This document shows, piece after piece, positions 13,250-25,259 of a DNA stretch of 64,000 nucleotides (within the stretch, counting starts at the first letter, position 1; the number at the start of each line of letters is the position of its first letter). A program made the translations under genes and the position numbers. The notes below the pieces were generated by a model that saw nothing but the letters and a program-made list of their open reading frames with translations, was not told the origin of the DNA and searched no databases. The stretch comes from a virus (taxonomy: Duplodnaviria; Caudoviricetes). The stretch lies in IMG/VR virus record IMGVR_UViG_3300028833_000061, positions 64,001-128,000 of that record; one strand, given 5' to 3'.

Positions 13250-16015
13250 CTAGTGTTTCATTTTCTCTCCCCAACGCGTGTATATATCCGTGTCGGAGTC
13301 AAGTCTGAATGTTCTTCCCGTCTTATATATCGGGATGTCTATCTCTGACATAGCCCAGTGCATCGCTTCCTTGGTAACGTCGATTTCATCGATCGGCACC
13401 TCGAGCATCAATGCATCGTGGATCTGGTTCTGGAGCTTGAATCTAAGCCCAAGCTCCTTTCTTCTGTTAAGCAGTCTCTCGGTTGCTATCTGTATCGTGC
13501 CTGACACAAGCGACTGGATGCTGTAGTTCGCACTTTCGCGTTCGTATGCCGCATTCCGTTCGCCAGGCCTGACAGGCGTCCACTTTCGCATTCCCCAGGC
13601 GTTCTCAATATAGCCTTTCTCGTACACGCTCTGCTTCCACTCCTCAAGAGTGTTCCACGCGACAGGGAACGAGCGTGTCTTCCATGCGTCAAGGACGTTC
13701 TGCATCTCTGCGGTGATTACATCCAACGGCCTCTCGTCTCTTGTCGACGACTTTATTTTTATAGCCAGTGCAGCCGCGCCGATTCCATACATGATCGAAA
13801 AGTTAGTCGTCTTTGCGGCAAGCCTCGGGCCGTTCTTCATCTGTGCGTGGGTCATGCACAGCCCGTGCTCGTTCTTGTATGTAAGGCTCTTCTGGAAGTT
13901 TTCGAACTCTTCGCAGGTATCTGAGCCAAGCTCCGAGGCATATTTGCAGATGTCGTCCATCGTCCATTCCTTGCCGTCTGGATCAAACATATGCAGGTGG
14001 AACGAGTCTACGGCAACCATTGTGTGCATGTCTGTTCCAAGGGTGTGCAAGGCCTTCAACAGATTAGGATCACCGGATAGGTTTCCTAGGACATGCAGTT
14101 CGGCAGTCGAATAATCCGTTTCCATCATGACCCATCCGTCTGGCGGCTTTACAAACGACCGCATCGACGGTGGCGGTGGATCTGGCGCGAAGATCTCGGC
14201 CATTGCGGCGTCGGCCTTCTTGCTAAAGTTCTGGACGTTTGGATCAGACGACGACAGCCTCCCCGTGGCAAGAAGCATTGAATATCTCGTATGGATCCTG
14301 CCATCCGGCCATACATAGCTCTTCAGTCCGCCTTTTCCGTGTTCGTCCGGCATCTGGAACAGATCGCACGGCTTCGACACCCTGCGATATCTCAGAAGCA
14401 GCCCTACTATCGGATGGGCGAATTCAAGCATCGTCAGGGAATCCTTGTCGGTGGACGCCTGCACAGATCCGCTGTCGTCATCCATGGCCATGTTCGCCAT
14501 GGCGTCTGCCCACGACTTCTTGTTCGTAGCCTTTATAGGTGTAAGTCCGCACTTGTCGAACAGCAACGTCCTGATGTGTGCAGAGCTGTTTACGTTGATG
14601 TCAGGCATTCCGAGGTTGGCGCAGGCTGTAGTCAGCTTTCCGAGGGCGTCTGCGCGGATATTCTGATACGCATCGACAAGTTCCTTGAATCTTTCCTCGT
14701 CGAACGGGAGGCCAGTGATCTCCATCTCCATCACCGACAAGGCCGTGGCCATAGTCGTGTGGAACAGCGACGGATACTCGCCTTTCACTCCTCTTGGGTC
14801 TAGCGCGCCTCTCTCCTGCAGCAACGGCAGCTGCTTCTCCATGATTCGATCAAGGACACAGACGTCATACGCACCATACGGCAGCAGTATTTCGTCAGGC
14901 ATGTTTCCATAGCCGTTGCTGTCTACGTCCGCCTTGTGCTCTTTGGCCCACTTGTCCGATGCTATGCAATACCTACCGAAATCGGTATATTTCATGGACA
15001 GGTCGTCGAGACCGAACGGGCCGATGTTCTTCAAGATGAATTCGGCCAGCATCGTATCGTAGAAGATCCGCGGACGTATGTCGATTCCGTACGACAAAAG
15101 CCATTCCGCGTCCGCTATGATGTTGTGGCCTACGATGTCGACGCGCTCGTCTTCCAGCAGCAGCTTCAGCTCGTCGAGCATCTTGTTGTAGCACGAGACG
15201 TGCCTGCCTCCCTCGTGGGTCAGCTGCACGACAACGGCCTTGTCCCTGGCATACGAAAACTGGATCGTCCTGAAATAGCGGTTCGGATCCTGCCAGTTCT
15301 TTCCGCCCCACTCCGAGTCAAGGAACAGAGGAACGTTCTTCTGGTTTTCGAACAGAATTTCGCGGAACGCCTTTATCTCGTCTGCCGACGTGAAGTACAT
15401 TACATCGACTTCCGGCACCTTCCTTGGCGTCCCGTCGAGATAGTTTATCGCCTCCTTCAGGTCGCGATGGAACGCATCGTCATATTCTGGATGCTTCTCG
15501 ACCTGGTCGAGGCTGAACACACCTAGAAGCTTTCTTGTCTTTCCAGCTATTTCCTTGTCTATTAGCTCGCCTCTGGATATGTCGAAATAGCCCTTGGCTC
15601 CGTACATGTTCTCGAAAGGATACGCCCCCAGGCAGATTATGATCTCAGGATCTACTTCCGCTATCTCCTCTTCAAGGAACAGCGAGCACTCCTTCGTCAT
15701 GTCGGCCTTTGGCTTCTCGCCTTTCTTCAGCGAGTACTTGAGCACATTCGTATAATACGTGCATCCTTTCGGGAAGCCTATCAGCCCAAGGTGTTCATAC
15801 AGAAAGTCAGCCTGCGAGTTGTACACGTCGCCGTTAGGAGCCTTCTGCAGGAACACCTTGCCGTGAACGACCTCGTTGTGGGTCGGAGCGGACCCGACGA
15901 TCATGCACCTGGCATGCGCCGGGCCGCGCCCGTTTACCCACATCCTGCTTCCTATCTGGAGCCTGTCTCCTTGGAAGCGGTGTGGTCTGTCGTCAATCTT
16001 TGGAATCTTCGCCAT
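13250..16015 (-). CDS. polA: Family A DNA polymerase with N-terminal UDG-like domain (SPO1 type) and 3'-5' exonuclease
   Basis: Exo LDSE / GHNIIAD / YGAYD; TGRLSSSDPNVQN; motif A DYSTAE, motif B RLAAKTTNFSIMYG, motif C IHDA; N-terminal GRG..MIVGSAP..YYTNVLK..DPEIIICLG. Confidence 0.93.
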   Translation of the reverse strand: MAKIPKIDDRPHRFQGDRLQIGSRMWVNGRGPAHARCMIVGSAPTHNEVVHGKVFLQKAPNGDVYNSQADFLYEHLGLIGFPKGCTYYTNVLKYSLKKGEKPKADMTKECSLFLEEEIAEVDPEIIICLGAYPFENMYGAKGYFDISRGELIDKEIAGKTRKLLGVFSLDQVEKHPEYDDAFHRDLKEAINYLDGTPRKVPEVDVMYFTSADEIKAFREILFENQKNVPLFLDSEWGGKNWQDPNRYFRTIQFSYARDKAVVVQLTHEGGRHVSCYNKMLDELKLLLEDERVDIVGHNIIADAEWLLSYGIDIRPRIFYDTMLAEFILKNIGPFGLDDLSMKYTDFGRYCIASDKWAKEHKADVDSNGYGNMPDEILLPYGAYDVCVLDRIMEKQLPLLQERGALDPRGVKGEYPSLFHTTMATALSVMEMEITGLPFDEERFKELVDAYQNIRADALGKLTTACANLGMPDINVNSSAHIRTLLFDKCGLTPIKATNKKSWADAMANMAMDDDSGSVQASTDKDSLTMLEFAHPIVGLLLRYRRVSKPCDLFQMPDEHGKGGLKSYVWPDGRIHTRYSMLLATGRLSSSDPNVQNFSKKADAAMAEIFAPDPPPPSMRSFVKPPDGWVMMETDYSTAELHVLGNLSGDPNLLKALHTLGTDMHTMVAVDSFHLHMFDPDGKEWTMDDICKYASELGSDTCEEFENFQKSLTYKNEHGLCMTHAQMKNGPRLAAKTTNFSIMYGIGAAALAIKIKSSTRDERPLDVITAEMQNVLDAWKTRSFPVAWNTLEEWKQSVYEKGYIENAWGMRKWTPVRPGERNAAYERESANYSIQSLVSGTIQIATERLLNRRKELGLRFKLQNQIHDALMLEVPIDEIDVTKEAMHWAMSEIDIPIYKTGRTFRLDSDTDIYTRWGEKMKH

Positions 16016-16736
16016 CTGGAAGCTCCGCTTTCACATGGCACGGATTCGTCTCATAATCGTCTGCCCACGGATACGAATCCCAGCCGTACCAGATATCGAT
16101 GTTCGGGCTGAACAGGATGTCGATGTCAGACAGCTTCTCTGCATTCTTGCAAATGCATAGACGAGGCTCGTCCTTCTTCGACTCGTCATAGTCCCATGAG
16201 CCTGGCTGACGAAGGCGATAGTCGATCACGTGATCCCCAACAGTGTCAGGGCCATCCTCTACGACCTGGTGGTCGATCTCGAACACCATATGCGCCTTCT
16301 TCGTATACGGCGTGTCCTTGGTTACCTCGGGCTTGTCCTCAGGATCCATATCCTCGTCCTCGCCATCCCACTCATAGCACTCGGAATAGTCGAATCCGTC
16401 GACATGGACTCCTTCGTCCTCGAGCAGGCTGCAGACTTGCTCCTCCCACATCTTCATGTCCGGGTCGTTCTCGACGTCGCCTGGACGAAGATCCGGCTCC
16501 CAGCAACCGAACTTGTTTGCGATCCTGAGTACGGTAAGATACTGCAGCTTGTCGTAGAACGTGTCTGGACCGTAGTTCCAGTCAGCCCTGTCAAAGTTGA
16601 ATCTGATCTTGCCACGCCTGATGCAGCCGCTAAGTTTGAAATACTCCTTGCGGCTGATCTTGCGCGGCGAAACAGACACTGCGTGCGTCGAGGACGAATT
16701 TGTCTCGAACACGCCTTCTCTTTTCACTTTTGGCAT
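15993..16736 (-). CDS. FETNSSS-motif protein 1
   Basis: N-terminal REGVFETNSSSTHA; FYDKLQYL; IDHQ. Confidence 0.85.
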   Translation of the reverse strand: MPKVKREGVFETNSSSTHAVSVSPRKISRKEYFKLSGCIRRGKIRFNFDRADWNYGPDTFYDKLQYLTVLRIANKFGCWEPDLRPGDVENDPDMKMWEEQVCSLLEDEGVHVDGFDYSECYEWDGEDEDMDPEDKPEVTKDTPYTKKAHMVFEIDHQVVEDGPDTVGDHVIDYRLRQPGSWDYDESKKDEPRLCICKNAEKLSDIDILFSPNIDIWYGWDSYPWADDYETNPCHVKAELPDGEDSKD

Positions 16737-16746
16737 TGTTTTTCTC

Positions 16747-17334
16747 CTATTGCGGTAAAACCGAAATCACGACATTAGGATTGTCGAGAAGATCGTACGC
16801 CGACAGCCGTTCCGTCATGTCGTCGAACGGAACACCGATATCGAAGTCCACTGACAGATACAGCTTCTTGTTCTTGCGGTTGAACGCGCTGGCTGCGTCT
16901 ATGTGAGCCCACTTGTACAGAGGGCCGGACGGCTCTTTGAATATCTTTGTCCAGCCCTTCTCGCTTTTCAAGTCGCGATCGAGCTTGCCGGCTCTCGACA
17001 GAACGCTGTTTGCGCTGTTCTCGATCATGCGGAATTCGCGCGTACGTTTAAACTCGTCTATATAATCCGTGACGTCATCATCGTACTTCTCCTGCTTGTA
17101 CATGAACCTGTCCATCGCGGCTTGGATGAGATACGCGACCTTTTCTCCGAATCCGGTGATCTTCGTCTCCTTGTTCAATATGACGACAGGCTTGACCTTG
17201 AGAACGTTGTTCTTGATCTTGATGTCTCTGAAGTAGTCGTCTGGCCACTGCTTCCTCGGATGATAGCCCTTGATGGAAAGGCTGTGCATCGACGACGAAT
17301 TCGTTTCAAAGACGTTGTGGCGTTCTACTTTCAT
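16747..17334 (-). CDS. FETNSSS-motif protein 2
   Basis: RHNVFETNSSSMHS; FGEKVAYL. Confidence 0.85.
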   Translation of the reverse strand: MKVERHNVFETNSSSMHSLSIKGYHPRKQWPDDYFRDIKIKNNVLKVKPVVILNKETKITGFGEKVAYLIQAAMDRFMYKQEKYDDDVTDYIDEFKRTREFRMIENSANSVLSRAGKLDRDLKSEKGWTKIFKEPSGPLYKWAHIDAASAFNRKNKKLYLSVDFDIGVPFDDMTERLSAYDLLDNPNVVISVLPQ

Positions 17335-17663
17335 TATTCGTATCCGTATGCGCAGAGTATGTGAATCTTATCGCCGTGTTCAGAAGTATACTCGTGCTCA
17401 TCCTGCTCAAGGTCCTCATACCACGCATCCATATTGAACCAGCCTTCGCTGCACAGCGGCCATACGGCCCCGTGCTCGATGTCGTCCTTAAAGTAGTCTG
17501 GAAGCAGCTTTATCGCCTCTTCCTTCGTCTTGATTCCGTGGTCCTTGTGGTACCATAGATTCCTGTCTTCCTTCAGTTTCTTGAAGTCCGCATCCGAAAG
17601 AATCGCTATCGCATGCGTAGACGAGGAGTTTGTTTCAAACACGCCATGCCTAGTTGTTTTCAT
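17334..17663 (-). CDS. FETNSSS-motif protein 3 (short form)
   Basis: RHGVFETNSSSTHA; ends YTSEHGDKIHILCAYGYE. Confidence 0.85.
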   Translation of the reverse strand: MKTTRHGVFETNSSSTHAIAILSDADFKKLKEDRNLWYHKDHGIKTKEEAIKLLPDYFKDDIEHGAVWPLCSEGWFNMDAWYEDLEQDEHEYTSEHGDKIHILCAYGYE

Positions 17664-18285
17664 GTTCTTCTCCGTAGAGTTTGTTGTAGTACGGGAGCTG
17701 CTTCACCCAGTCACAGAAGGTGTGCCACTCAGACAGCTTGTGAGTCTTTCTCGCCTCGTACATGTGATGCAGCACCTGATAGTTGCCCATCCATGTCGCC
17801 TTCTGGTTGTACGAAGATGGCAGCATCTGGACGATGTCTCGCCACATCGACTCCTTAAGGTCTGGAAGGTCCTCCTTCAGACACAGGTCTCGCATGAGGT
17901 TCAGCTCGTCGATCATGTCCCTGAAATAACGATAGCCGTATGACGTGCCGTCCCTGCTGAAGTCGTCGATAGTAAATGGCTTCTTCAACAGCGTGTGCAT
18001 GGTCGAGCAGCTGTTCCTTACTGTGCCTATTTTGTAGGTATCTGCCTCTTTCCACCAATACATCGGTGCTGTGATATCGGCATACACAACGATCATGCGA
18101 GTCAGCTTGCCGTGGTCGTCTCCGGCCTGTGCAAGCTTCATTGCAAGCTCAAGGTCCTTCTTGCCTGGAGTGAAAACTCCGTCTTCGTTTTTCGAATCTG
18201 ACAAGTGCCACGAATTCAACGGGTTGCGCATTGCGCGCAAGGCCTCCTTGAGTCCGTAAACACTCGTGTTTTCAATTTTGATCAT
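17650..18285 (-). CDS. ThyX/Thy1-like phage protein
   Basis: AMRNPLNSW, DHGKLTR, ITAPMYWWKEADTYK, NSCSTMH, LPSSYNQ, RKTHKLSEW; canonical RHR..S.R signature absent. Confidence 0.6.
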   Translation of the reverse strand: MIKIENTSVYGLKEALRAMRNPLNSWHLSDSKNEDGVFTPGKKDLELAMKLAQAGDDHGKLTRMIVVYADITAPMYWWKEADTYKIGTVRNSCSTMHTLLKKPFTIDDFSRDGTSYGYRYFRDMIDELNLMRDLCLKEDLPDLKESMWRDIVQMLPSSYNQKATWMGNYQVLHHMYEARKTHKLSEWHTFCDWVKQLPYYNKLYGEEHENN

Positions 18286-18952
18286 CGCCTGTCAGTACCT
18301 TCGCTACGTTTTCTTCGAATATCTTTCCCCAGTGATCCTCGAACTTGTTGGATTCCGGCAGGAACTTTCCATCATACTCGGACTGTCCGTCAAGCTCGAT
18401 GATGTACGAACGGGGATCTTCCAGGAATCTCTCGATGTTCTCCCGCTCGCGCAGATTGAACTTGTCGAGGAAGTCTGTCCGAATCCAGCAGTTGGTGTGG
18501 ATGAGCTGTATCTGCTCTGGTGGATCCTTGCTGATGCTGTCCTTGGGCTCGTTGTACAGCATCCTGATGTGGCTCGGGATTATACCAGAAACCTCGTAGC
18601 CGTGGCGCGCCATGACGTTCCTGACCGCCAGCTCGATCACAGGAAACATGGAAAACGGATAGTCTCCGAACACCTGCTCGGGCATGTACCAGTTGTCGTA
18701 CCACTTGCCGTACTTGTCCCAGAAGCTGTCCGCTGCCGTGGCAAGCAGCACGCGAACCTTGTCGTAGAACGAATATATCTCGTTCGGCATGTCGAAATCA
18801 TCGATCTCGAAGTTATTATACTTTCTGACATGCGTATACGCCTCCTTGAAGTACATGTCGTTCAGCACGAAGTGCTTGTCACCGTTGTACAGGGCCAGCA
18901 CGTGCGTCGACGACGAATTCGTCTCAAATACGCCTCGTCTAGTTGTTTTCAT
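18272..18952 (-). CDS. FETNSSS-motif protein 4
   Basis: RRGVFETNSSSTHV; FYDKVRVL; FLEDPRSYII. Confidence 0.85.
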   Translation of the reverse strand: MKTTRRGVFETNSSSTHVLALYNGDKHFVLNDMYFKEAYTHVRKYNNFEIDDFDMPNEIYSFYDKVRVLLATAADSFWDKYGKWYDNWYMPEQVFGDYPFSMFPVIELAVRNVMARHGYEVSGIIPSHIRMLYNEPKDSISKDPPEQIQLIHTNCWIRTDFLDKFNLRERENIERFLEDPRSYIIELDGQSEYDGKFLPESNKFEDHWGKIFEENVAKVLTGDDQN

Positions 18953-19499
18953 GCTTTCTTATTATCGTTATGTCGCTGCACAGCGTGCAGTACTCGATGT
19001 CTCCGAAAGATTTGCAGTTCTTGTTCCAGAACCACTCGAACTCAACCTCGTCGCCAGGCTCGATGTCTTGATTTATATACTTTCGCGTTATGAACATCTG
19101 CCCGGTCCAGGCGCGTATCCACTGGCGCTTCGTTCCATATCTGGTACGAATGTTGCACGACGTTATCGTACCGCGAAACTTTCTTCTATCTATAACCGGA
19201 GTATCCGGGGCCTTTGGAGGCTCGTACTCCTTAAGGCCTTCTGGACCTCCTACGACTACGCACCCGAGAATGATTCTTTCGTGGTTTCCGCTTACCGTGT
19301 ACGCGCTTACGGTCTGCCCTTTCTTTATGTCCCTGTTTATACTGAGACATGTCGATATTAGATCGGACAGACCCTTAAGCTTGATCGACTGCTTCGCCTT
19401 CCCGGCCACAGTACCGTACACCTCGCTCCACTCCACTACGCCCGTTGTTACAACGACGTCCTTGGAGTGGAACGAGCCTACGACGTCGCCAGCCTTCAT
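18939..19499 (-). CDS. Hypothetical protein
   Basis: 186 aa ORF with overlapping neighbours. Confidence 0.7.
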   Translation of the reverse strand: MKAGDVVGSFHSKDVVVTTGVVEWSEVYGTVAGKAKQSIKLKGLSDLISTCLSINRDIKKGQTVSAYTVSGNHERIILGCVVVGGPEGLKEYEPPKAPDTPVIDRRKFRGTITSCNIRTRYGTKRQWIRAWTGQMFITRKYINQDIEPGDEVEFEWFWNKNCKSFGDIEYCTLCSDITIIRKHENN

Positions 19500-20389
19500 C
19501 GCAGCGACCTGTACATTGCCGTGACGGAGACCGGTTTGGTCGGATCATAGAACGTGAGAACGTCCGTAAGCGAATTGCGTGCATAGGCATGCGCCACGGC
19601 ATCGACGTACATCGACGCAGAAGTCATGGTACCGTCCACTCCATCGTCGCCCATATACATTGACAGCCATGCCTGCGGCTCCATCATGTCCTTGACGCCG
19701 AGCTGGTTGAGGGCCAGATTGTCGAAAGACAGGACCTTGCATGGCAACTTACCTGTGACGATGTGCCTGACGACTTCCTTGAGCGTGGACATGTCCGGGA
19801 TCTCGTCCTTCTTTGCACGGCCCATGTTCTTGTAGCCAAGCAGCAGGATCTTCGCTCCGCTCGTCGCATACTCCACGACAGCCTTCGGAGGAACGATTCC
19901 TGCGATCAGGTGAAGAACCGTGTTGTCCGTCATCTTTTCGACGATCTCCGCATCGAAGTGATCGATCGACACTCCGATTCCGAACAGCTTCTTGTCGTTG
20001 ACGTACTTCATCAGGCGATCGTGGTACTTCAGGAAGTGCGTCCAGTGGACCGTTATGTTGGCCAGCAGTTCGTTGTCCGAGCACAGGTCCAGGATGCGAT
20101 CGAGGTCTGGATGCTCGATCGGAGATCCTCCGCCAAGCGCGACCTCGGTCCACGGCATCATCGTATCCACGACTGCACGCACGTCCTCATAGCTTGCGTG
20201 CTTTCCTGCAGGAGTGCAATTGCGATAGCAGAACGGACAGCCGACGCCGCACGCGTCGGTGATGTTCAGATCGATCGACTCAGGGAAGTCGGCAATGAAA
20301 ACAGGCTCTTCCCCGGAATCGCGGATCTTCGTTCCGTCAGTATCGTCTATGGAAACCTTGTAGTTTCCGTTCTGATACTCGTGCGTCAT
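19496..20389 (-). CDS. Radical SAM protein
   Basis: ITDACGVGCPFCY (CxxxCxxC), EVALGGGSP, ANIT, GIGVS, SFDNLA. Confidence 0.9.
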   Translation of the reverse strand: MTHEYQNGNYKVSIDDTDGTKIRDSGEEPVFIADFPESIDLNITDACGVGCPFCYRNCTPAGKHASYEDVRAVVDTMMPWTEVALGGGSPIEHPDLDRILDLCSDNELLANITVHWTHFLKYHDRLMKYVNDKKLFGIGVSIDHFDAEIVEKMTDNTVLHLIAGIVPPKAVVEYATSGAKILLLGYKNMGRAKKDEIPDMSTLKEVVRHIVTGKLPCKVLSFDNLALNQLGVKDMMEPQAWLSMYMGDDGVDGTMTSASMYVDAVAHAYARNSLTDVLTFYDPTKPVSVTAMYRSLR

Positions 20390-20787
20390 AGCTTTTCAAG
20401 CTCCTTGACGCGATGAACCAGCATGGCGGTCTTGCGCTCGGCGGCGATGACGGTCTGCTCGTCGAACGGAAGCTTTCCGCTTCCGCTGCCGTACCATTTG
20501 ACCACCTCCCAGTTGGCACCGACGATATAGGTTCCGTTGTCGCCATTGTCGGTGTCGAGGTGCTTCAGGTCACCGACTCCGATTCCGCTGTCCTTGGCAA
20601 GTCCGAGGTCGAACGCAATAAGTCCGCACAGTCTTGCCACCGCGTATTCTGGATCGTCTTCCGGGTCGCGATAGCCAAGCGCCTTTGCGGCCCCAATATA
20701 GCCAAGCACCGTGGCTGGATCTCCGTTCCAGTGGACGTAGATACCGGTATCGCAGTCATTCAATCCGATTACTGCTCTGTCTCCCAT
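20386..20787 (-). CDS. Conserved phage hypothetical protein
   Basis: MGDRAVI..IYVHWNG..DNGTY pattern. Confidence 0.75.
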   Translation of the reverse strand: MGDRAVIGLNDCDTGIYVHWNGDPATVLGYIGAAKALGYRDPEDDPEYAVARLCGLIAFDLGLAKDSGIGVGDLKHLDTDNGDNGTYIVGANWEVVKWYGSGSGKLPFDEQTVIAAERKTAMLVHRVKELEKL

Positions 20788-21416
20788 TATTCGTAGCTCC
20801 AGTCCTTCTCAGCATGGATCATGAATTCGATCTGCGTGTTGAAGATTAGGGTTATCATTTCATCGACGGACGCGTTCATAATCTCGAAATACTCGGTCCT
20901 GGCCTCCGGTCCGACGTACACCAGATTGCTCTGGCGTATAATCTTGCGGATTTCAGGCTCGTCGTGTCCGTCATGCCACTTTGGATTCCAAATCTGGTTT
21001 CCGTTGGAGTCGGCCTTGCCCATGGCGCAAGCCGGAAACTGCGCGCGCCCGAGGACTACTCTCCTGAGCGGCACGTCCTTTCCATCCTTGTGCGCGATAG
21101 CAAGCGACTCGTTGATCTTGTCGAACAGCGTCTTGAAGTCGACGAACTGCATAAGCTCGGCAGGAGTAGCATGGAACAGATGCTCATAGTTGCTGTATCC
21201 GAACAGGCTTGTCTTGCAGTCGTTCGCATACAGCGCCAACGCCGTCTTGATCTTGTCAGGCAGCGATATCGCCCATCCGTCATCCATGTCCAGCGACAGG
21301 TCTCCGATCCAGAAGTCTTTGGCCTTGGACCTGCGAAGCTGCTCGTAGATGCAGGCGGGATTGCTCTTCTTGCTGCGCTTTCTGAAAATCTCGAGAATGT
21401 ATCTCTCCTCGTCCAT
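20787..21416 (-). CDS. Hypothetical protein
   Basis: Likely start MDEERY (21416), coupled to the upstream TGA, GGAGG nearby. Confidence 0.7.
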   Translation of the reverse strand: MDEERYILEIFRKRSKKSNPACIYEQLRRSKAKDFWIGDLSLDMDDGWAISLPDKIKTALALYANDCKTSLFGYSNYEHLFHATPAELMQFVDFKTLFDKINESLAIAHKDGKDVPLRRVVLGRAQFPACAMGKADSNGNQIWNPKWHDGHDEPEIRKIIRQSNLVYVGPEARTEYFEIMNASVDEMITLIFNTQIEFMIHAEKDWSYE

Positions 21417-22123
21417 CAGCCGTTCCTCCAGTATGAGATTCCAAGTGTCTTGCGGATGACGATGTCTATAGGACGCCAGCCGCCGAAGCACGACGTGAGG
21501 CTCTTGTGCTCGTCCCAGGCATCCCTTGCCCAGTCACACACTTCGTGATCAAGGTCGGACACGACAAGCTTGCCTTTGTCGATCCGCTCGTACAGAATAA
21601 CCCTCTTTGCACTAGGATCCTCTATGATTTTTCCGTCGTCGTTCTTTACAGTGATGCACTTGAGCATGATATTGTCGTTGTCATAACTAGATCCAAGAAG
21701 ATCCTCCACCTCCCATAGGTCGGAACGTTCTCCGAACACGATATCCTTGAGGTTGAAGCCGAGCTTCTTGAACTCCTTCGTGAGGTCATTCACGAAATCC
21801 TTGTACGCCTTGTGCTTCTTCATCTTCTCGACGTCGATCAGATAGTCTCCTGTATAACGGTTCGTGAGCCCCTGGCCTATGATGCCGAATATGTACCGGA
21901 GCTTTGCGTCGAGCGAATACTTCGTCGTACGCATCTTTCCGCCTAGCTTTCTGATTCGCAGATACCAGTCGTCCCCCTGCTTGTCCATTACAACGGAATC
22001 CCAGTCATCAAGGTCCAGGACATCCGCCCTGTCGATCTTCTTGTATGTCTCCGCGAGATTCCAGGCGATCGCGTGGGTCGAGCTGGAATTCGTCTCGAAG
22101 ACGCCTCTTCTAACCGTTCTCAT
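21416..22123 (-). CDS. FETNSSS-motif protein 5
   Basis: RRGVFETNSSSTHA; LDAKLRYI; LDHE. Confidence 0.85.
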   Translation of the reverse strand: MRTVRRGVFETNSSSTHAIAWNLAETYKKIDRADVLDLDDWDSVVMDKQGDDWYLRIRKLGGKMRTTKYSLDAKLRYIFGIIGQGLTNRYTGDYLIDVEKMKKHKAYKDFVNDLTKEFKKLGFNLKDIVFGERSDLWEVEDLLGSSYDNDNIMLKCITVKNDDGKIIEDPSAKRVILYERIDKGKLVVSDLDHEVCDWARDAWDEHKSLTSCFGGWRPIDIVIRKTLGISYWRNG

Positions 22124-22514: not shown

Positions 22515-22755
22515 AGCAGTCGTCGCAAAGACCTGTCTGGATCATCTCGCGCTCGGTTGGCGTGAACTGATCCACTGGCAGGATTTCCTGGATCAACTTG
22601 TGGTTCTTACCGCTGCAGTAGTCTCTGATAGCATTAGCCTGGTCTGTCGAACAGACAAGCATCTGCTTCTTTCCACACATTGGGCACGCTCTGTGCACCT
22701 CGGCCGTCGCCATGTTTGGGTGCATTATCATTCTGTCAAAACTAGCCATTTCCAT
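22489..22755 (-). CDS. Small zinc-finger protein
   Basis: CPMC...LIQE..ERE..TGLCDDC. Confidence 0.7.
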   Translation of the reverse strand: MEMASFDRMIMHPNMATAEVHRACPMCGKKQMLVCSTDQANAIRDYCSGKNHKLIQEILPVDQFTPTEREMIQTGLCDDCYDRACSSF

Positions 22756-23749
22756 CCTTCAGCTCTACCAGGCAATTGAACGAGCTCAACGTGAGACCGC
22801 TGTTTGCCAGGTACTTGTTTGAATTTACTGTGTCCTCTATCTGCCTCCATATTTCAGGCCTTGGACATTCTCCGGCGTCCTTGTATCCCTTCAGGGACAC
22901 TGGAACTACCAGCGTAGTAGTGGGAAATCTTGCGGCTAGCTTTGTCTGTTCGTCAGCCGCGTCAGGGTCCAACAGGAGAATGACAAGACGCCACCTGGAC
23001 AGCATCGATATCTGGCCGTCGCTGACGTTCTTTCCGAAAGTAGCCACTCCGCACAGCCCAACGGCCATGGCATCGAAGGCACCCTCGGTAACGACAACGA
23101 CGTCAGAATGCACCGCCCAGTCCTTGTTGAACAGCAGTTTTCCCTTTTCAACACCCGGAGACGTGAAATACTTCGGAGGTCTCCTGTACTTGCCACTTGG
23201 CTTCTTCTCGAATCCGAAGGCCGCGCATTCATCATCGCTCAGCTTGTCGGGATTGTACAGCAGCCTGGATTGCCATCCTACCACCTTTCCTTCGTCGTAC
23301 AATGGAAGTACTATGGTGTTGGACGTGTTGAACAATCCTCCTGCATACGGCTTTCCTTCCCGGCAATAGCATACTCCGAACATGCGCTCCAGCTCTCCCG
23401 GATCGAACCCGCGTTGCTTCAGGTACAGGATCGCCTGGTGACCTGAAGGCAGCGCGTGCAGCGGTATCAGTTCGCCAGGATCCGTCTGGACTATCGGTTT
23501 CTTCTCTTCCTTCTCAACAGGCCTGAATACCATATTCCTGGCCTCACGAATAAGGTTGCCTATGCGGCCTCCCTCACCACAGTGCCAGCAATGCCAGATA
23601 CCCATGTTGGCATTTACCGACATCTTGTACTCGTGCCCGCATTTCGGGCACGTCGTCAACAGTTCCAGACCGTTTCTACCGCTGCTTTTCCTGACAGGTC
23701 CGAACTTGTCCTCAAGAAGCTGCTGGAGCCTCTGGCTTGACTGGGACAT
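22742..23749 (-). CDS. DNA primase (zinc finger + TOPRIM)
   Basis: CPKC..WHCWHC, YLKQRG, GWQSR, PKYF, VTEGAFDA, LDPD, KDAGE. Confidence 0.85.
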   Translation of the reverse strand: MSQSSQRLQQLLEDKFGPVRKSSGRNGLELLTTCPKCGHEYKMSVNANMGIWHCWHCGEGGRIGNLIREARNMVFRPVEKEEKKPIVQTDPGELIPLHALPSGHQAILYLKQRGFDPGELERMFGVCYCREGKPYAGGLFNTSNTIVLPLYDEGKVVGWQSRLLYNPDKLSDDECAAFGFEKKPSGKYRRPPKYFTSPGVEKGKLLFNKDWAVHSDVVVVTEGAFDAMAVGLCGVATFGKNVSDGQISMLSRWRLVILLLDPDAADEQTKLAARFPTTTLVVPVSLKGYKDAGECPRPEIWRQIEDTVNSNKYLANSGLTLSSFNCLVELKDGNG

Positions 23750-25259
23750 TCGTTTCCTCTCCGGTCATCATCTGGTAGAACTTCTCAATTCCTTCGTCGT
23801 CTAGCAGCTTCATCGCGTCCAGCATGTCGTCGCGCTTGTCCCACATGCGCAAGGACGGCCCTTGGTAGAACGTCCTGTATGTGTTGATGGCTTCGGCGTC
23901 TCGGCACTTCAGGAACGACACGTTCATGAATCTGCTCAGCTCCGGCATCTCAGAGGCCTTCTTGCCGGTGTTGCTCATATATTTTATCTTTCCGGCGTCC
24001 TTAAGGGCAAGAGCGATGCAGATGTCGCAATAATCGATCACGTGCGAAGAATGCGCTATATCCTTGCGGACGAGCACGTTCTTCTCCTCGGACCCTTGCT
24101 TTACCTGGCAGGCGGTCCATATGATCGTCCGGGTCCTTCTGGCGATAGCGGACAACTCCCTGGATATCTTCTTGAGCAGTCCTGCCTCGTTGTCGGTCCT
24201 CTGGGCGTTTCTAACGCTATGAAAGTCGTTCGTGATCGATTCGATCCAGTCCACATATACGAACGAACAGCGATCCTCTGGTATTCCCTGCTTCATCTTG
24301 CTTTCCTTCCAATACGATATGGATGATTCGATAACGTCCAGGGTAGGCTCGATGTGCTGCATCTTCTGATACTTGCTCGCGCCAGAGAAGTCGAGAATGC
24401 TGATATTATTCCACAGTGGACACTTCTTGGCGCACCACCTGTAGTTTTCAAGCATCTTCTTGGGCCACAGGTCGAGATTTCTCTTCTTGAGATTGCGCGC
24501 GTCGATGAACGACATCATCGCATTCAGTCGAGAAACGACCATGGACTCAGGATTCTCCAGTGTCATAGTAAGGCTGTGGCGACCCATAAGGGCGTTGTTC
24601 ATGGCGAAATTCAGCATGCCTATGGACTTTCCGACGCCAGACGGCGCCACAAGGATCCCATACTGTCCTATGTCCATGCCGCCGCCAAGCGGTATGTCTA
24701 TGCTCTGAAGTCCGGTGCCGTACAGATACTCCGACTCCCCGAACACCTCAGAGAATTCCGTAGGATCCGTAAACTGGAATCCATCGGCGTTCATGGACGC
24801 CACGTCGGCCTGGATCTGGTTTATCTCCTCGGCATAGCTGTCAGCATCTAGACCCTTGGCGTCAGCTGCCATGAATCTGACGGTCTTTACGAACCGGTTC
24901 AGCTTCTTCGGGTCTCTGAAATAATTCGAATTTGCCGTAGACGGATTCTGAAGCGCATTGCATGCTCCGCACAGGACGTCCGCGAAATCGGAGTAGTCCT
25001 GTTCAGCTACGCTGTTCCTATAGGTATCCGTCGTTCCATTTACAGCCCCGATCGCCTCCATCTGCAGGATCTCGGGGGTTATCATCTGGTTGAACTTCTT
25101 GTAGTGCTTGTCGGCAACCTCGAATATCAGCCTGAGCGCATCAGTGCCGAAATCAGTTGATCTCAGCTTTCCCGATACGTCCTTGAAGAACTCCTTGTCC
25201 GCAAGAAGCGCATATAGAAGGTTTGTCTGGAACCTTCTGTCGAACTCTACGTTCAGCAT
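23712..25259 (-). CDS. DnaB-like replicative helicase
   Basis: APSGVGKS, TLE, VYVDW, IWTACQ, KCR motifs; adjacent to the primase. Confidence 0.87.
   Translation of the reverse strand: MLNVEFDRRFQTNLLYALLADKEFFKDVSGKLRSTDFGTDALRLIFEVADKHYKKFNQMITPEILQMEAIGAVNGTTDTYRNSVAEQDYSDFADVLCGACNALQNPSTANSNYFRDPKKLNRFVKTVRFMAADAKGLDADSYAEEINQIQADVASMNADGFQFTDPTEFSEVFGESEYLYGTGLQSIDIPLGGGMDIGQYGILVAPSGVGKSIGMLNFAMNNALMGRHSLTMTLENPESMVVSRLNAMMSFIDARNLKKRNLDLWPKKMLENYRWCAKKCPLWNNISILDFSGASKYQKMQHIEPTLDVIESSISYWKESKMKQGIPEDRCSFVYVDWIESITNDFHSVRNAQRTDNEAGLLKKISRELSAIARRTRTIIWTACQVKQGSEEKNVLVRKDIAHSSHVIDYCDICIALALKDAGKIKYMSNTGKKASEMPELSRFMNVSFLKCRDAEAINTYRTFYQGPSLRMWDKRDDMLDAMKLLDDEGIEKFYQMMTGEETNVPVKPEAPAAS

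Follow-up and report, generated by a model that had tools for sequence, protein, structure and literature searches.

The stretch of DNA analysed here (the window) comprises bases 64001-128000, that is 64,000 nucleotides, of the 201,401-bp virus record IMGVR_UViG_3300028833_000061 (Caudoviricetes). It contains five genes whose products, named W1 to W5, begin with a common sequence around F-E-T-N-S-S-S (the tag), and a gene for a radical S-adenosylmethionine (rSAM) enzyme, the single copy of its family in the genome. All five tag genes lie within 6.2 kb of this rSAM gene, on one strand and with overlapping stops and starts, and the whole set is embedded in a co-directional, densely packed block on the minus strand which extends from a helicase end to a polymerase end (Table 1). 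A first-pass annotation had read the cluster as a candidate system for protein modification. As shown below, tag genes and rSAM gene are coupled far beyond this genome, and the module they form is real and widespread and has apparently not been described so far.

Table 1. Genes of the minus-strand block in window coordinates, with sizes, tags and distinguishing features
Feature	Position	Strand	Description
Family A DNA polymerase with uracil-DNA glycosylase (UDG) and exonuclease domains	13250-16015	-	One end of the block
W1, tag protein	15993-16736	-	247 aa, isoelectric point (pI) 4.5; tag MPKVKREGVFETNSSSTHA; body with KLQYL helix, EIDHQVVEDG, DIDI and YGWDS
W2, tag protein	16747-17334	-	195 aa, pI 9.0; tag MKVERHNVFETNSSSMHS; DH motif degenerate (HIDAA)
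W3, tag protein, short class	17334-17663	-	109 aa; tag MKTTRHGVFETNSSSTHA; no DH motif
Interspersed gene, phrog_6721 (E 8e-68)	17650-18285	-	211 aa, between W3 and W4; no Pfam or NCBIfam family
W4, tag protein	18272-18952	-	226 aa; tag MKTTRRGVFETNSSSTHV; KVRVL helix kept
Interspersed gene, no family	18939-19499	-	186 aa; not conserved with the module
Radical SAM enzyme	19496-20389	-	297 aa; PF04055, phrog_16999
Two interspersed genes, no family	20386-21491	-	133 aa and about 234 aa; not conserved with the module
W5, tag protein	21416-22123	-	235 aa; tag MRTVRRGVFETNSSSTHA; AKLRYI helix and DLDHE
Zinc-ribbon open reading frame, probably primase-like	22742-23749	-	Block member
DnaB-like helicase	23712-25259	-	One end of the block

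The five open reading frames (ORFs) start where the first-pass annotation had placed them, and all begin with M-x3-4-R-x-[G/N]-V-F-E-T-N-S-S-S-[T/M]-H. A six-frame scan detected exactly these five tags in the window and no others in the 201,401-bp genome, compared to a chance expectation of about 1e-4 for the exact 7-residue word. Between any two of the tags 3-10 of 14 codons differ synonymously, at a nucleotide identity of 57-81%; the tag is therefore not a DNA repeat, and selection acts on the peptide, as had been proposed. The K-[LV]-x-[YV]-[LI] helix described for the bodies also proved to be real, with K63 and Y66 being nearly invariant in an alignment of 38 sequences and located inside a model helix comprising residues 60-76. 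The second body feature that had been pointed out, a remnant of an IDH motif, can be recognised in W1 (EIDHQ), W5 (DLDHE), W2 (HIDAA) and W4 (QLIHT), but is uneven and absent from W3.

The anatomy of the tag was derived from 324 distinct tag proteins. The distance from Met1 to the Phe is always 8 or 9 residues, and the F-E-T-N-S-S-S core is essentially invariant, although its residues were constrained by the regular expression used for selection. Two positions outside this selection pattern are also conserved, namely an Arg at -4 (323 of 324) and a His at +8 (320 of 324), the latter being followed by an alternating hydrophobic pattern. The proteins have sizes of 80-320 aa and are acidic (median pI 4.7, n = 324), and one genome encodes between one and seven of them, with five in the genome studied here.

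Within one locus the bodies show only about 25% identity, and the extreme divergence claimed for them holds in that respect. They are not unrelated, however, as W1, W2 and W5 still match one body-family profile after removal of the tag. Members of this large long class have FGEFGWG, KLxYLxT, GYIDHQS and a C-terminal IDNDN in common, and the tag-stripped proteins score 41 bits (W1), 17.8 bits (W2) and 13.9 bits (W5) against its profile (shuffled maximum 4.3). W4 is a marginal member (5.5 bits, shuffled maximum 4.3), while W3 does not match the long-class profile and belongs to another, short class; 20 homologues of its body were found among the tag proteins of other loci. A DH motif is present in only 88 of the 324 proteins, and the additional body motifs of W1 are kept in its close homologues. 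BLAST single linkage unites 337 of the bodies, and most of them belong to one divergent family. No named family was found for W1-W5 in Pfam, NCBIfam, PHROGs or PADLOC, a profile search of the PDB sequences with the tag-protein family gave matches at chance level only, and a search of the ESM Atlas with W1 was uninformative. A word search with W1 as a single protein retrieved 6 relatives, and a profile search of 1.84 billion representatives retrieved 30 at E <=0.001; these low numbers result from the fact that most family members share little beyond the tag.

The assignment of the rSAM gene was confirmed by a match to PF04055 with 39.2 bits (cut-off 29.5); both this score above the gathering threshold and the cluster motif C47-x3-C51-x2-C54 place the protein in the radical SAM superfamily. 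All three cysteines are invariant in an alignment of 30 homologues, in which no other invariant or nearly invariant Cys occurs, so that the enzyme lacks the auxiliary cluster of SPASM/twitch proteins. Likewise, no SPASM-type NCBIfam model scored above its cut-off. The same 30 sequences revealed a conserved extension of about 45 residues ahead of the cluster motif, a conserved N-terminal hairpin YxNGNYxV..DGTKIR with the invariant pattern Y-x-N-G-N-Y...D-G-T-K-x-R, and the C-terminal motifs SFDNLAxxQ and YMGDDGxDG..TSASMYVD. Of the 30 homologues longer than 520 aa, 21 have Pfam domains of inteins or LAGLIDADG homing endonucleases (PF14528, PF14890, PF05203) and one more has PF07463 instead (together P0156-P0177); the rSAM gene is a frequent intein host, which is typical of highly conserved phage genes.

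Sequence likeness to structurally solved rSAM enzymes is marginal (best E 8.5e-6). Folds were compared using the rSAM half of P0179, a homologous natural fusion described below, which was modelled with a predicted local distance difference test score (pLDDT) above 90. VIA-align led to SkfB (Z 19.8; 279 aligned residues, root-mean-square deviation 4.3) and SuiB (Z 19.3) as closest neighbours, followed by EpeE (17.2), viperin-like enzymes (16.6), PqqE (15.9), ChlB (15.3) and the anaerobic sulfatase-maturating enzyme anSME (14.8), and Foldseek gave E values of 2.5e-6 to 1e-4 for the structural neighbours. The alignments with SkfB and SuiB take in the conserved N-terminal extension, starting at chain residues 12 and 4, opposite the N-terminal domains of these proteins. 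According to the model, the enzyme shares the partial TIM-barrel core and the peptide-binding architecture of the SPASM/twitch enzymes (anSME, SkfB, SuiB, CteB, EpeE), and peptide and protein maturases lead the list of its predicted structural neighbours.

Co-occurrence of tag and enzyme was analysed in both directions with independent samples. For a sample seeded with the rSAM enzyme, 80 viral loci and 80 loci from genomes or metagenome-assembled genomes (MAGs) were fetched with the 30-sequence alignment. A tag ORF was found within 10 kb of the rSAM gene in 76/80 viral and 75/80 genome or MAG loci (151/160), and each of the 378 tag ORFs sharing a locus with an rSAM gene is located on the same strand as the latter, at a median distance of 1.3 kb. 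In six of the nine loci without a tag the rSAM gene is positioned at a contig end; in the other three no tag gene was present despite good flanks. The reverse sample was seeded with a degenerate DNA pattern for FETNSSSxH, which allowed only TCN serine codons and hence covers part of the family. Here, 77 of 116 viral stretches contain the rSAM gene inside the fetched piece. Among 34 remaining records it was detected elsewhere in 23, including all 11 with a completeness of at least 90%, and most of those in which it is missing are fragments, 3-16% complete, the three exceptions being 37%, 76% and 88% complete. Tag genes commonly occurring without this rSAM family, which the first-pass annotation had named as evidence against a link, were thus not observed in the motif-seeded sample.

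Clustering of all ORFs located on the strand of the rSAM gene and at most 4 kb away from it showed the rSAM family to recur in 180 loci, the tag family in 170 and the next family in only 30. The pair has no recurrent third gene family in its vicinity, and no protease, exporter or separate protein with a RiPP recognition element (RRE; RiPP, ribosomally synthesised and post-translationally modified peptide) is linked to it within 4 kb. In addition, at least eight clusters of natural fusions were identified among the rSAM homologues longer than 520 aa, all in the order tag, body, linker and rSAM domain. Four of them (P0178, P0179, P0180 and P0184) have canonical tags, while the drifted tags of P0181-P0183 (ETSSSSASA) and P0185 (ATNSSSTHS) keep the Ser triplet and are altered at the N, the H or the FE. 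Two further long homologues, P0094 and G013, were rejected as tag fusions upon inspection. Two-way co-occurrence, constant co-orientation, the lack of a third conserved gene and the natural fusions together strongly support a functional coupling between the tag proteins and the rSAM enzyme.

The position of the tag relative to the body was examined in an AlphaFold2 model of W1 (38-row alignment; pLDDT 79, predicted template modelling score (pTM) 0.81). Residues 1-13 are modelled with pLDDT <50 and the first strand begins at S16; therefore, the Ser triplet is predicted to lie at the hinge that connects a free N-terminal arm to the folded core. No match to the model was obtained with Foldseek against the PDB, in an exhaustive VIA-align search (best Z 2.9) or in BFVD. 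Hence the motif does not appear as the buried strand of a known fold, the possibility that had been raised against a role as recognition segment: it forms a low-confidence arm on a body that lacks a solved-fold match. The missing matches do not prove that the fold is new, but no known fold would explain the motif as judged from this model. In the P0179 fusion model the tag is better defined, with a pLDDT of 85 for residues 1-10 and 72 for residues 11-20 (39 and 63 in stand-alone W1), followed by values below 50 for residues 23-69. This comparison is uncontrolled, and the confidence of the tag is at most suggestive of its packing on the enzyme.

At 90% identity the rSAM family falls into 3,291 clusters, and it was confirmed in 498 IMG/VR stretches. 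Lak megaphages have members of it, as do the cultured Microcystis phages Ma-LMM01 and MaMV-DC, in which the annotation reads 'Fe-S oxidoreductase'. In Ma-LMM01, gp130 (L301:6076-6573) has a perfect tag and is located upstream of the rSAM protein gp128, with gp129 in between, and in Rhodothermus phage RM378 p106 (L302:8076-8846) shows a drifted tag (GLSTNSSSSHS) beside the divergent, 24% identical rSAM protein p108. The hosts of Ma-LMM01 and RM378 are oxygenic phototrophs or aerobes, which is worth mentioning for an oxygen-sensitive enzyme class. No publication containing FETNSSS or its variants or describing the module was found, a literature search on radical SAM enzymes in phages returned nothing relevant, and the Ma-LMM01 transcriptome paper does not mention gp128 and gp130.

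An occurrence in bacteria has to be treated with caution, as many matches in MAGs and genomes are binned phage contigs or prophage-like regions; MAG contig L109, for example, coincides in length and coordinates with the viral contig L028. In an isolate scaffold of a Lachnospiraceae strain (L142:2711-15225) the pair has three DNA methylases (one C5, two N6/N4) in its flanks, together with an ADP-ribosylglycohydrolase and a RlaP nucleotidyltransferase, a prophage-like anti-restriction neighbourhood. The only contig with cellular-type neighbours is archaeal: in a Methanomassiliicoccaceae MAG (L148:9977-11681, plus strand) the rSAM gene is directly followed by a gene for a 260-aa tag protein, and the neighbouring Ham1, MazE/PhoU, AAA_14-DUF4143 and HipA genes point to a cellular or mobile-island context and not to an obvious virus.

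None of the genes interspersed between the tag genes in the window (211, 186, 133 and 234 aa) shows conservation with the module in related loci. The phrog_6721 gene is present in just 2 of 183 related loci and is consequently placed outside the conserved module. The end of the 186-aa gene overlaps the start of W4, and its own start is overlapped by the stop of the rSAM gene by 4 nt. For the 234-aa ORF (20787-21491, minus strand) the listed GTG start gives an overlap of 76 nt with the end of W5, and a downstream ATG (MDEERY...) is probably the true start. The G+C content of the window is about 0.52-0.57 over the first 32 kb, then mostly about 0.45-0.50, with 0.52-0.54 at 52-56 kb, and the GC skew is negative nearly everywhere, in line with the bias of genes towards the minus strand.

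The data show the genomic coupling, the fusions, the anatomy of the tag, the enzyme class and the lack of an auxiliary cluster. Our preferred reading is that the rSAM enzyme is a maturase and the tag proteins are its clients, modified at the Ser triplet, to which we assign a probability of roughly 0.5. Direct binding, the site and chemistry of the modification and its biological role are what we infer in the following scheme. The module would consist of two components, a minimal rSAM enzyme with a single [4Fe-4S] cluster and the client family that it serves. The client N-terminus, M-(K)-x-x-h-R-x-x-V-F-E-T-N, would act as a short built-in leader docking on the enzyme, probably through strand pairing with the conserved N-terminal hairpin of the latter. 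The invariant Ser-Ser-Ser, just ahead of the first strand of the body, would thereby be brought to the 5'-deoxyadenosyl radical as the site of hydrogen abstraction, and one serine would be modified. Candidate chemistries are an epimerisation, an oxidation to an aldehyde or a dehydro residue, or a cross-link to a neighbouring residue of the tag such as His+8; by analogy with related enzymes, epimerisation or cross-linking seems easier than a net oxidation for an enzyme without auxiliary cluster. The modified tag would be needed for the function of the clients, acidic and fast-diversifying phage proteins made from the replication-gene block, with the body as functional cargo. The earlier proposal of variable effector bodies behind a common leader would thus be retained with respect to the common tag and the divergent bodies, but most bodies are one family with motifs of its own.

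Several observations weigh against a maturase with clients. The enzyme is devoid of the auxiliary clusters on which the oxidative chemistry of its nearest relatives depends, and viperin-like nucleotide enzymes follow close behind in fold score. Fusions of an enzyme with its substrate are unusual, and a permanent partner or subunit would be at least as good an explanation of a fusion. Moreover, the more than ten conserved residues of the tag exceed what substrate recognition usually needs, and the variable tag positions gave no clear signal of locus-specific co-adaptation. Finally, the polar body motifs of the long class (GYIDHQS, IDNDN) mean that the tag could, as far as the sequences indicate, belong to an intrinsic active site.

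In the main rival explanation, which is possible but less probable, the tag proteins are no substrates but interchangeable subunits of the rSAM enzyme. Their tag would complete or gate the active site, and their variable bodies would recruit the true substrates, which may be host proteins, nucleic acids or small molecules. Such adaptors are equally compatible with the co-occurrence and fusion data, and fusions between an enzyme and its specificity subunit are commoner than those between enzyme and substrate. More than ten conserved tag residues, including E, N, S, H and R of catalytic type, would suit a structural or catalytic insert, and several paralogues per enzyme resemble alternative specificity subunits. 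The stand-alone model, however, shows the tag as a flexible arm beside a folded body, as expected for a peptide substrate, the nearest structural relatives act on peptides taken into the barrel, and no recurrent third gene is linked that could encode the true substrate.

As to a biological role of the tag proteins, one lead comes from a tag protein of 262 aa (L019:9998-10783, plus strand) with a C-terminal Tad2-like domain (PF11195, 26.5 bits, cut-off 25), a domain that was detected in none of W1-W5. In the ESM Atlas, the model of a 62-member Tad2-like cluster (261 aa) overlaps with a tag-protein body (TM score 0.61 over 127 residues). Together with the acidity, the copy number of one to seven per genome and the rapid divergence, this makes a putative role in counter-defence plausible. 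PADLOC has no matching system. A more far-reaching version of the maturase reading would be that the rSAM enzyme turns the Ser triplet into a new protein-derived group (a cofactor, cross-link or warhead) and so arms diversifying counter-defence proteins of an unseen fold, a post-translational mechanism that jumbo phages, megaphages, cyanophages and certain archaeal elements would have in common, with one lineage being already fused to a Tad2-like immune-signal sponge domain. Taken as a whole, we consider this combination doubtful.

It is also unlikely that tag proteins and enzyme are merely neighbours in a pathway, sharing for example a nucleotide or signalling molecule with no mutual modification, and that the tag together with GYIDHQS and IDNDN forms the intrinsic metal-binding or catalytic site of a new family of small enzymes or binding proteins. 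The conserved polar motifs in the long-class bodies, the location of the cluster among DNA-replication genes, with a family A DNA polymerase on one side and a DnaB-like helicase on the other, the viperin-like nucleotide rSAM enzymes among the structural neighbours (Z 16.6) and the Tad2-like small-molecule sponge domain on one tag protein would all be in agreement with this. Yet so few proteins carry the DH motif (88/324), and short classes like W3 keep a perfect tag without any body motif; the fixed distance to Met1 and the low-confidence arm would be unusual for a strand of an active site, and the flanking genes are not conserved between phages.

A capsid-targeting or prohead-protease signal as in T4 internal proteins, or another sorting or autoprocessing signal next to an incidental rSAM gene, would account for a portable-looking N-terminal tag at a fixed distance from Met1 on acidic, diversified proteins, and V-F-E resembles the h-x-E protease sites of T4 and phiKZ; it is nevertheless very improbable, as it leaves the linkage of roughly 95% to the rSAM gene, the fusions and the occurrence in an archaeal MAG unexplained, and the genes are located in a replication block and not in a head block. 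A T4-like capsid-targeting sequence and a pyruvoyl or N-terminal-nucleophile self-processing at Asn/Ser were rejected, since they explain neither the linkage nor the fusions, as was a twin-arginine translocation (Tat) signal (RRxFh-like), given that the RR lacks a hydrophobic region downstream and its second Arg varies.

If the Ser triplet is indeed modified, the module would be a protein maturation system that is widespread in large phages and so far unstudied. Its substrate motif would differ from all known rSAM targets, its single-cluster enzyme would carry out chemistry on serine, and its client proteins would be new in having no match to a known fold. Radical SAM enzymology would gain a reaction to define, a large set of unknown phage genes would acquire a candidate function, and the cultured phage-host pairs make the module directly testable.

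Among known systems, the T4 internal proteins with their capsid-targeting sequence are likewise diversified acidic phage proteins with a common short N-terminal peptide, but T4 has no corresponding rSAM enzyme, and here the tag is encoded in a replication block and remains the same in very distant phages and in an archaeal contig. With viperins there is no likeness at the family level: NF038283 matches residues 38-152 only (20.5 bits, cut-off 180), the PADLOC pVip model matches residues 39-152 only (25.7 bits), and the fold score of 16.6 lies below those of SkfB and SuiB. The analogies to RiPP maturases, glycyl-radical activases and sulfatase maturases drawn in the first-pass annotation hold for the architecture only, as the defining features of each were not found. 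Glycyl-radical activases (the pyruvate formate-lyase activase PFL-AE, NrdG) are small single-cluster rSAM enzymes of about 300 aa as well, acting on an invariant loop of folded proteins that are encoded adjacently, with client enzymes and spare-part proteins both included in this comparison. In contrast to their C-terminal RVxG glycine loop, which is absent from W1-W5, the phage motif is N-terminal and Ser-rich, and no PflA- or NrdG-type model was among the 24 weak NCBIfam matches of the rSAM enzyme.

anSME/AtsB (PDB 4K37) also serves several folded clients, which share a short, invariant motif with a Ser close to the N-terminus and need the modified residue for their function, and its core fold is similar (Z 14.4-14.8). 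The phage enzyme differs by lacking the SPASM domain and auxiliary cysteines, and its clients carry R-x-x-V-F-E-T-N-S-S-S-x-H, placed at a fixed distance from Met1, instead of (C/S)-x-(P/A)-x-R. The latter is absent from W1-W5, which also gave no sulfatase Pfam match even at E <1 and no fold match. Closer relatives are found among the RiPP maturases, for which CteB, ChlB and PqqE were compared in addition to SkfB (6EFN) and SuiB (5V1Q/5V1T), the best structural matches over about 280 residues with the N-terminal extension included. The N-terminal recognition segment followed by candidate modified residues mirrors a leader and core, and the N-terminal element of the phage enzyme has about 45 residues, compared to about 90 aa for a full RRE winged helix. 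However, auxiliary clusters are missing, and the candidate substrates are folded proteins of 80-320 aa (as modelled for W1) and not short precursors with a released core, with no linked protease or exporter at the phage loci. EpeE/YydG (8AI2), the next-best structural relative (Z 17.2), has a second cluster and a Cys as hydrogen-atom donor, whereas the phage family has no conserved Cys beyond CX3CX2C. Comparable peptide epimerases are the proteusin epimerases of the PoyD type, and as epimerisation requires no electron sink, this chemistry would be compatible with the single-cluster enzyme of the phages.

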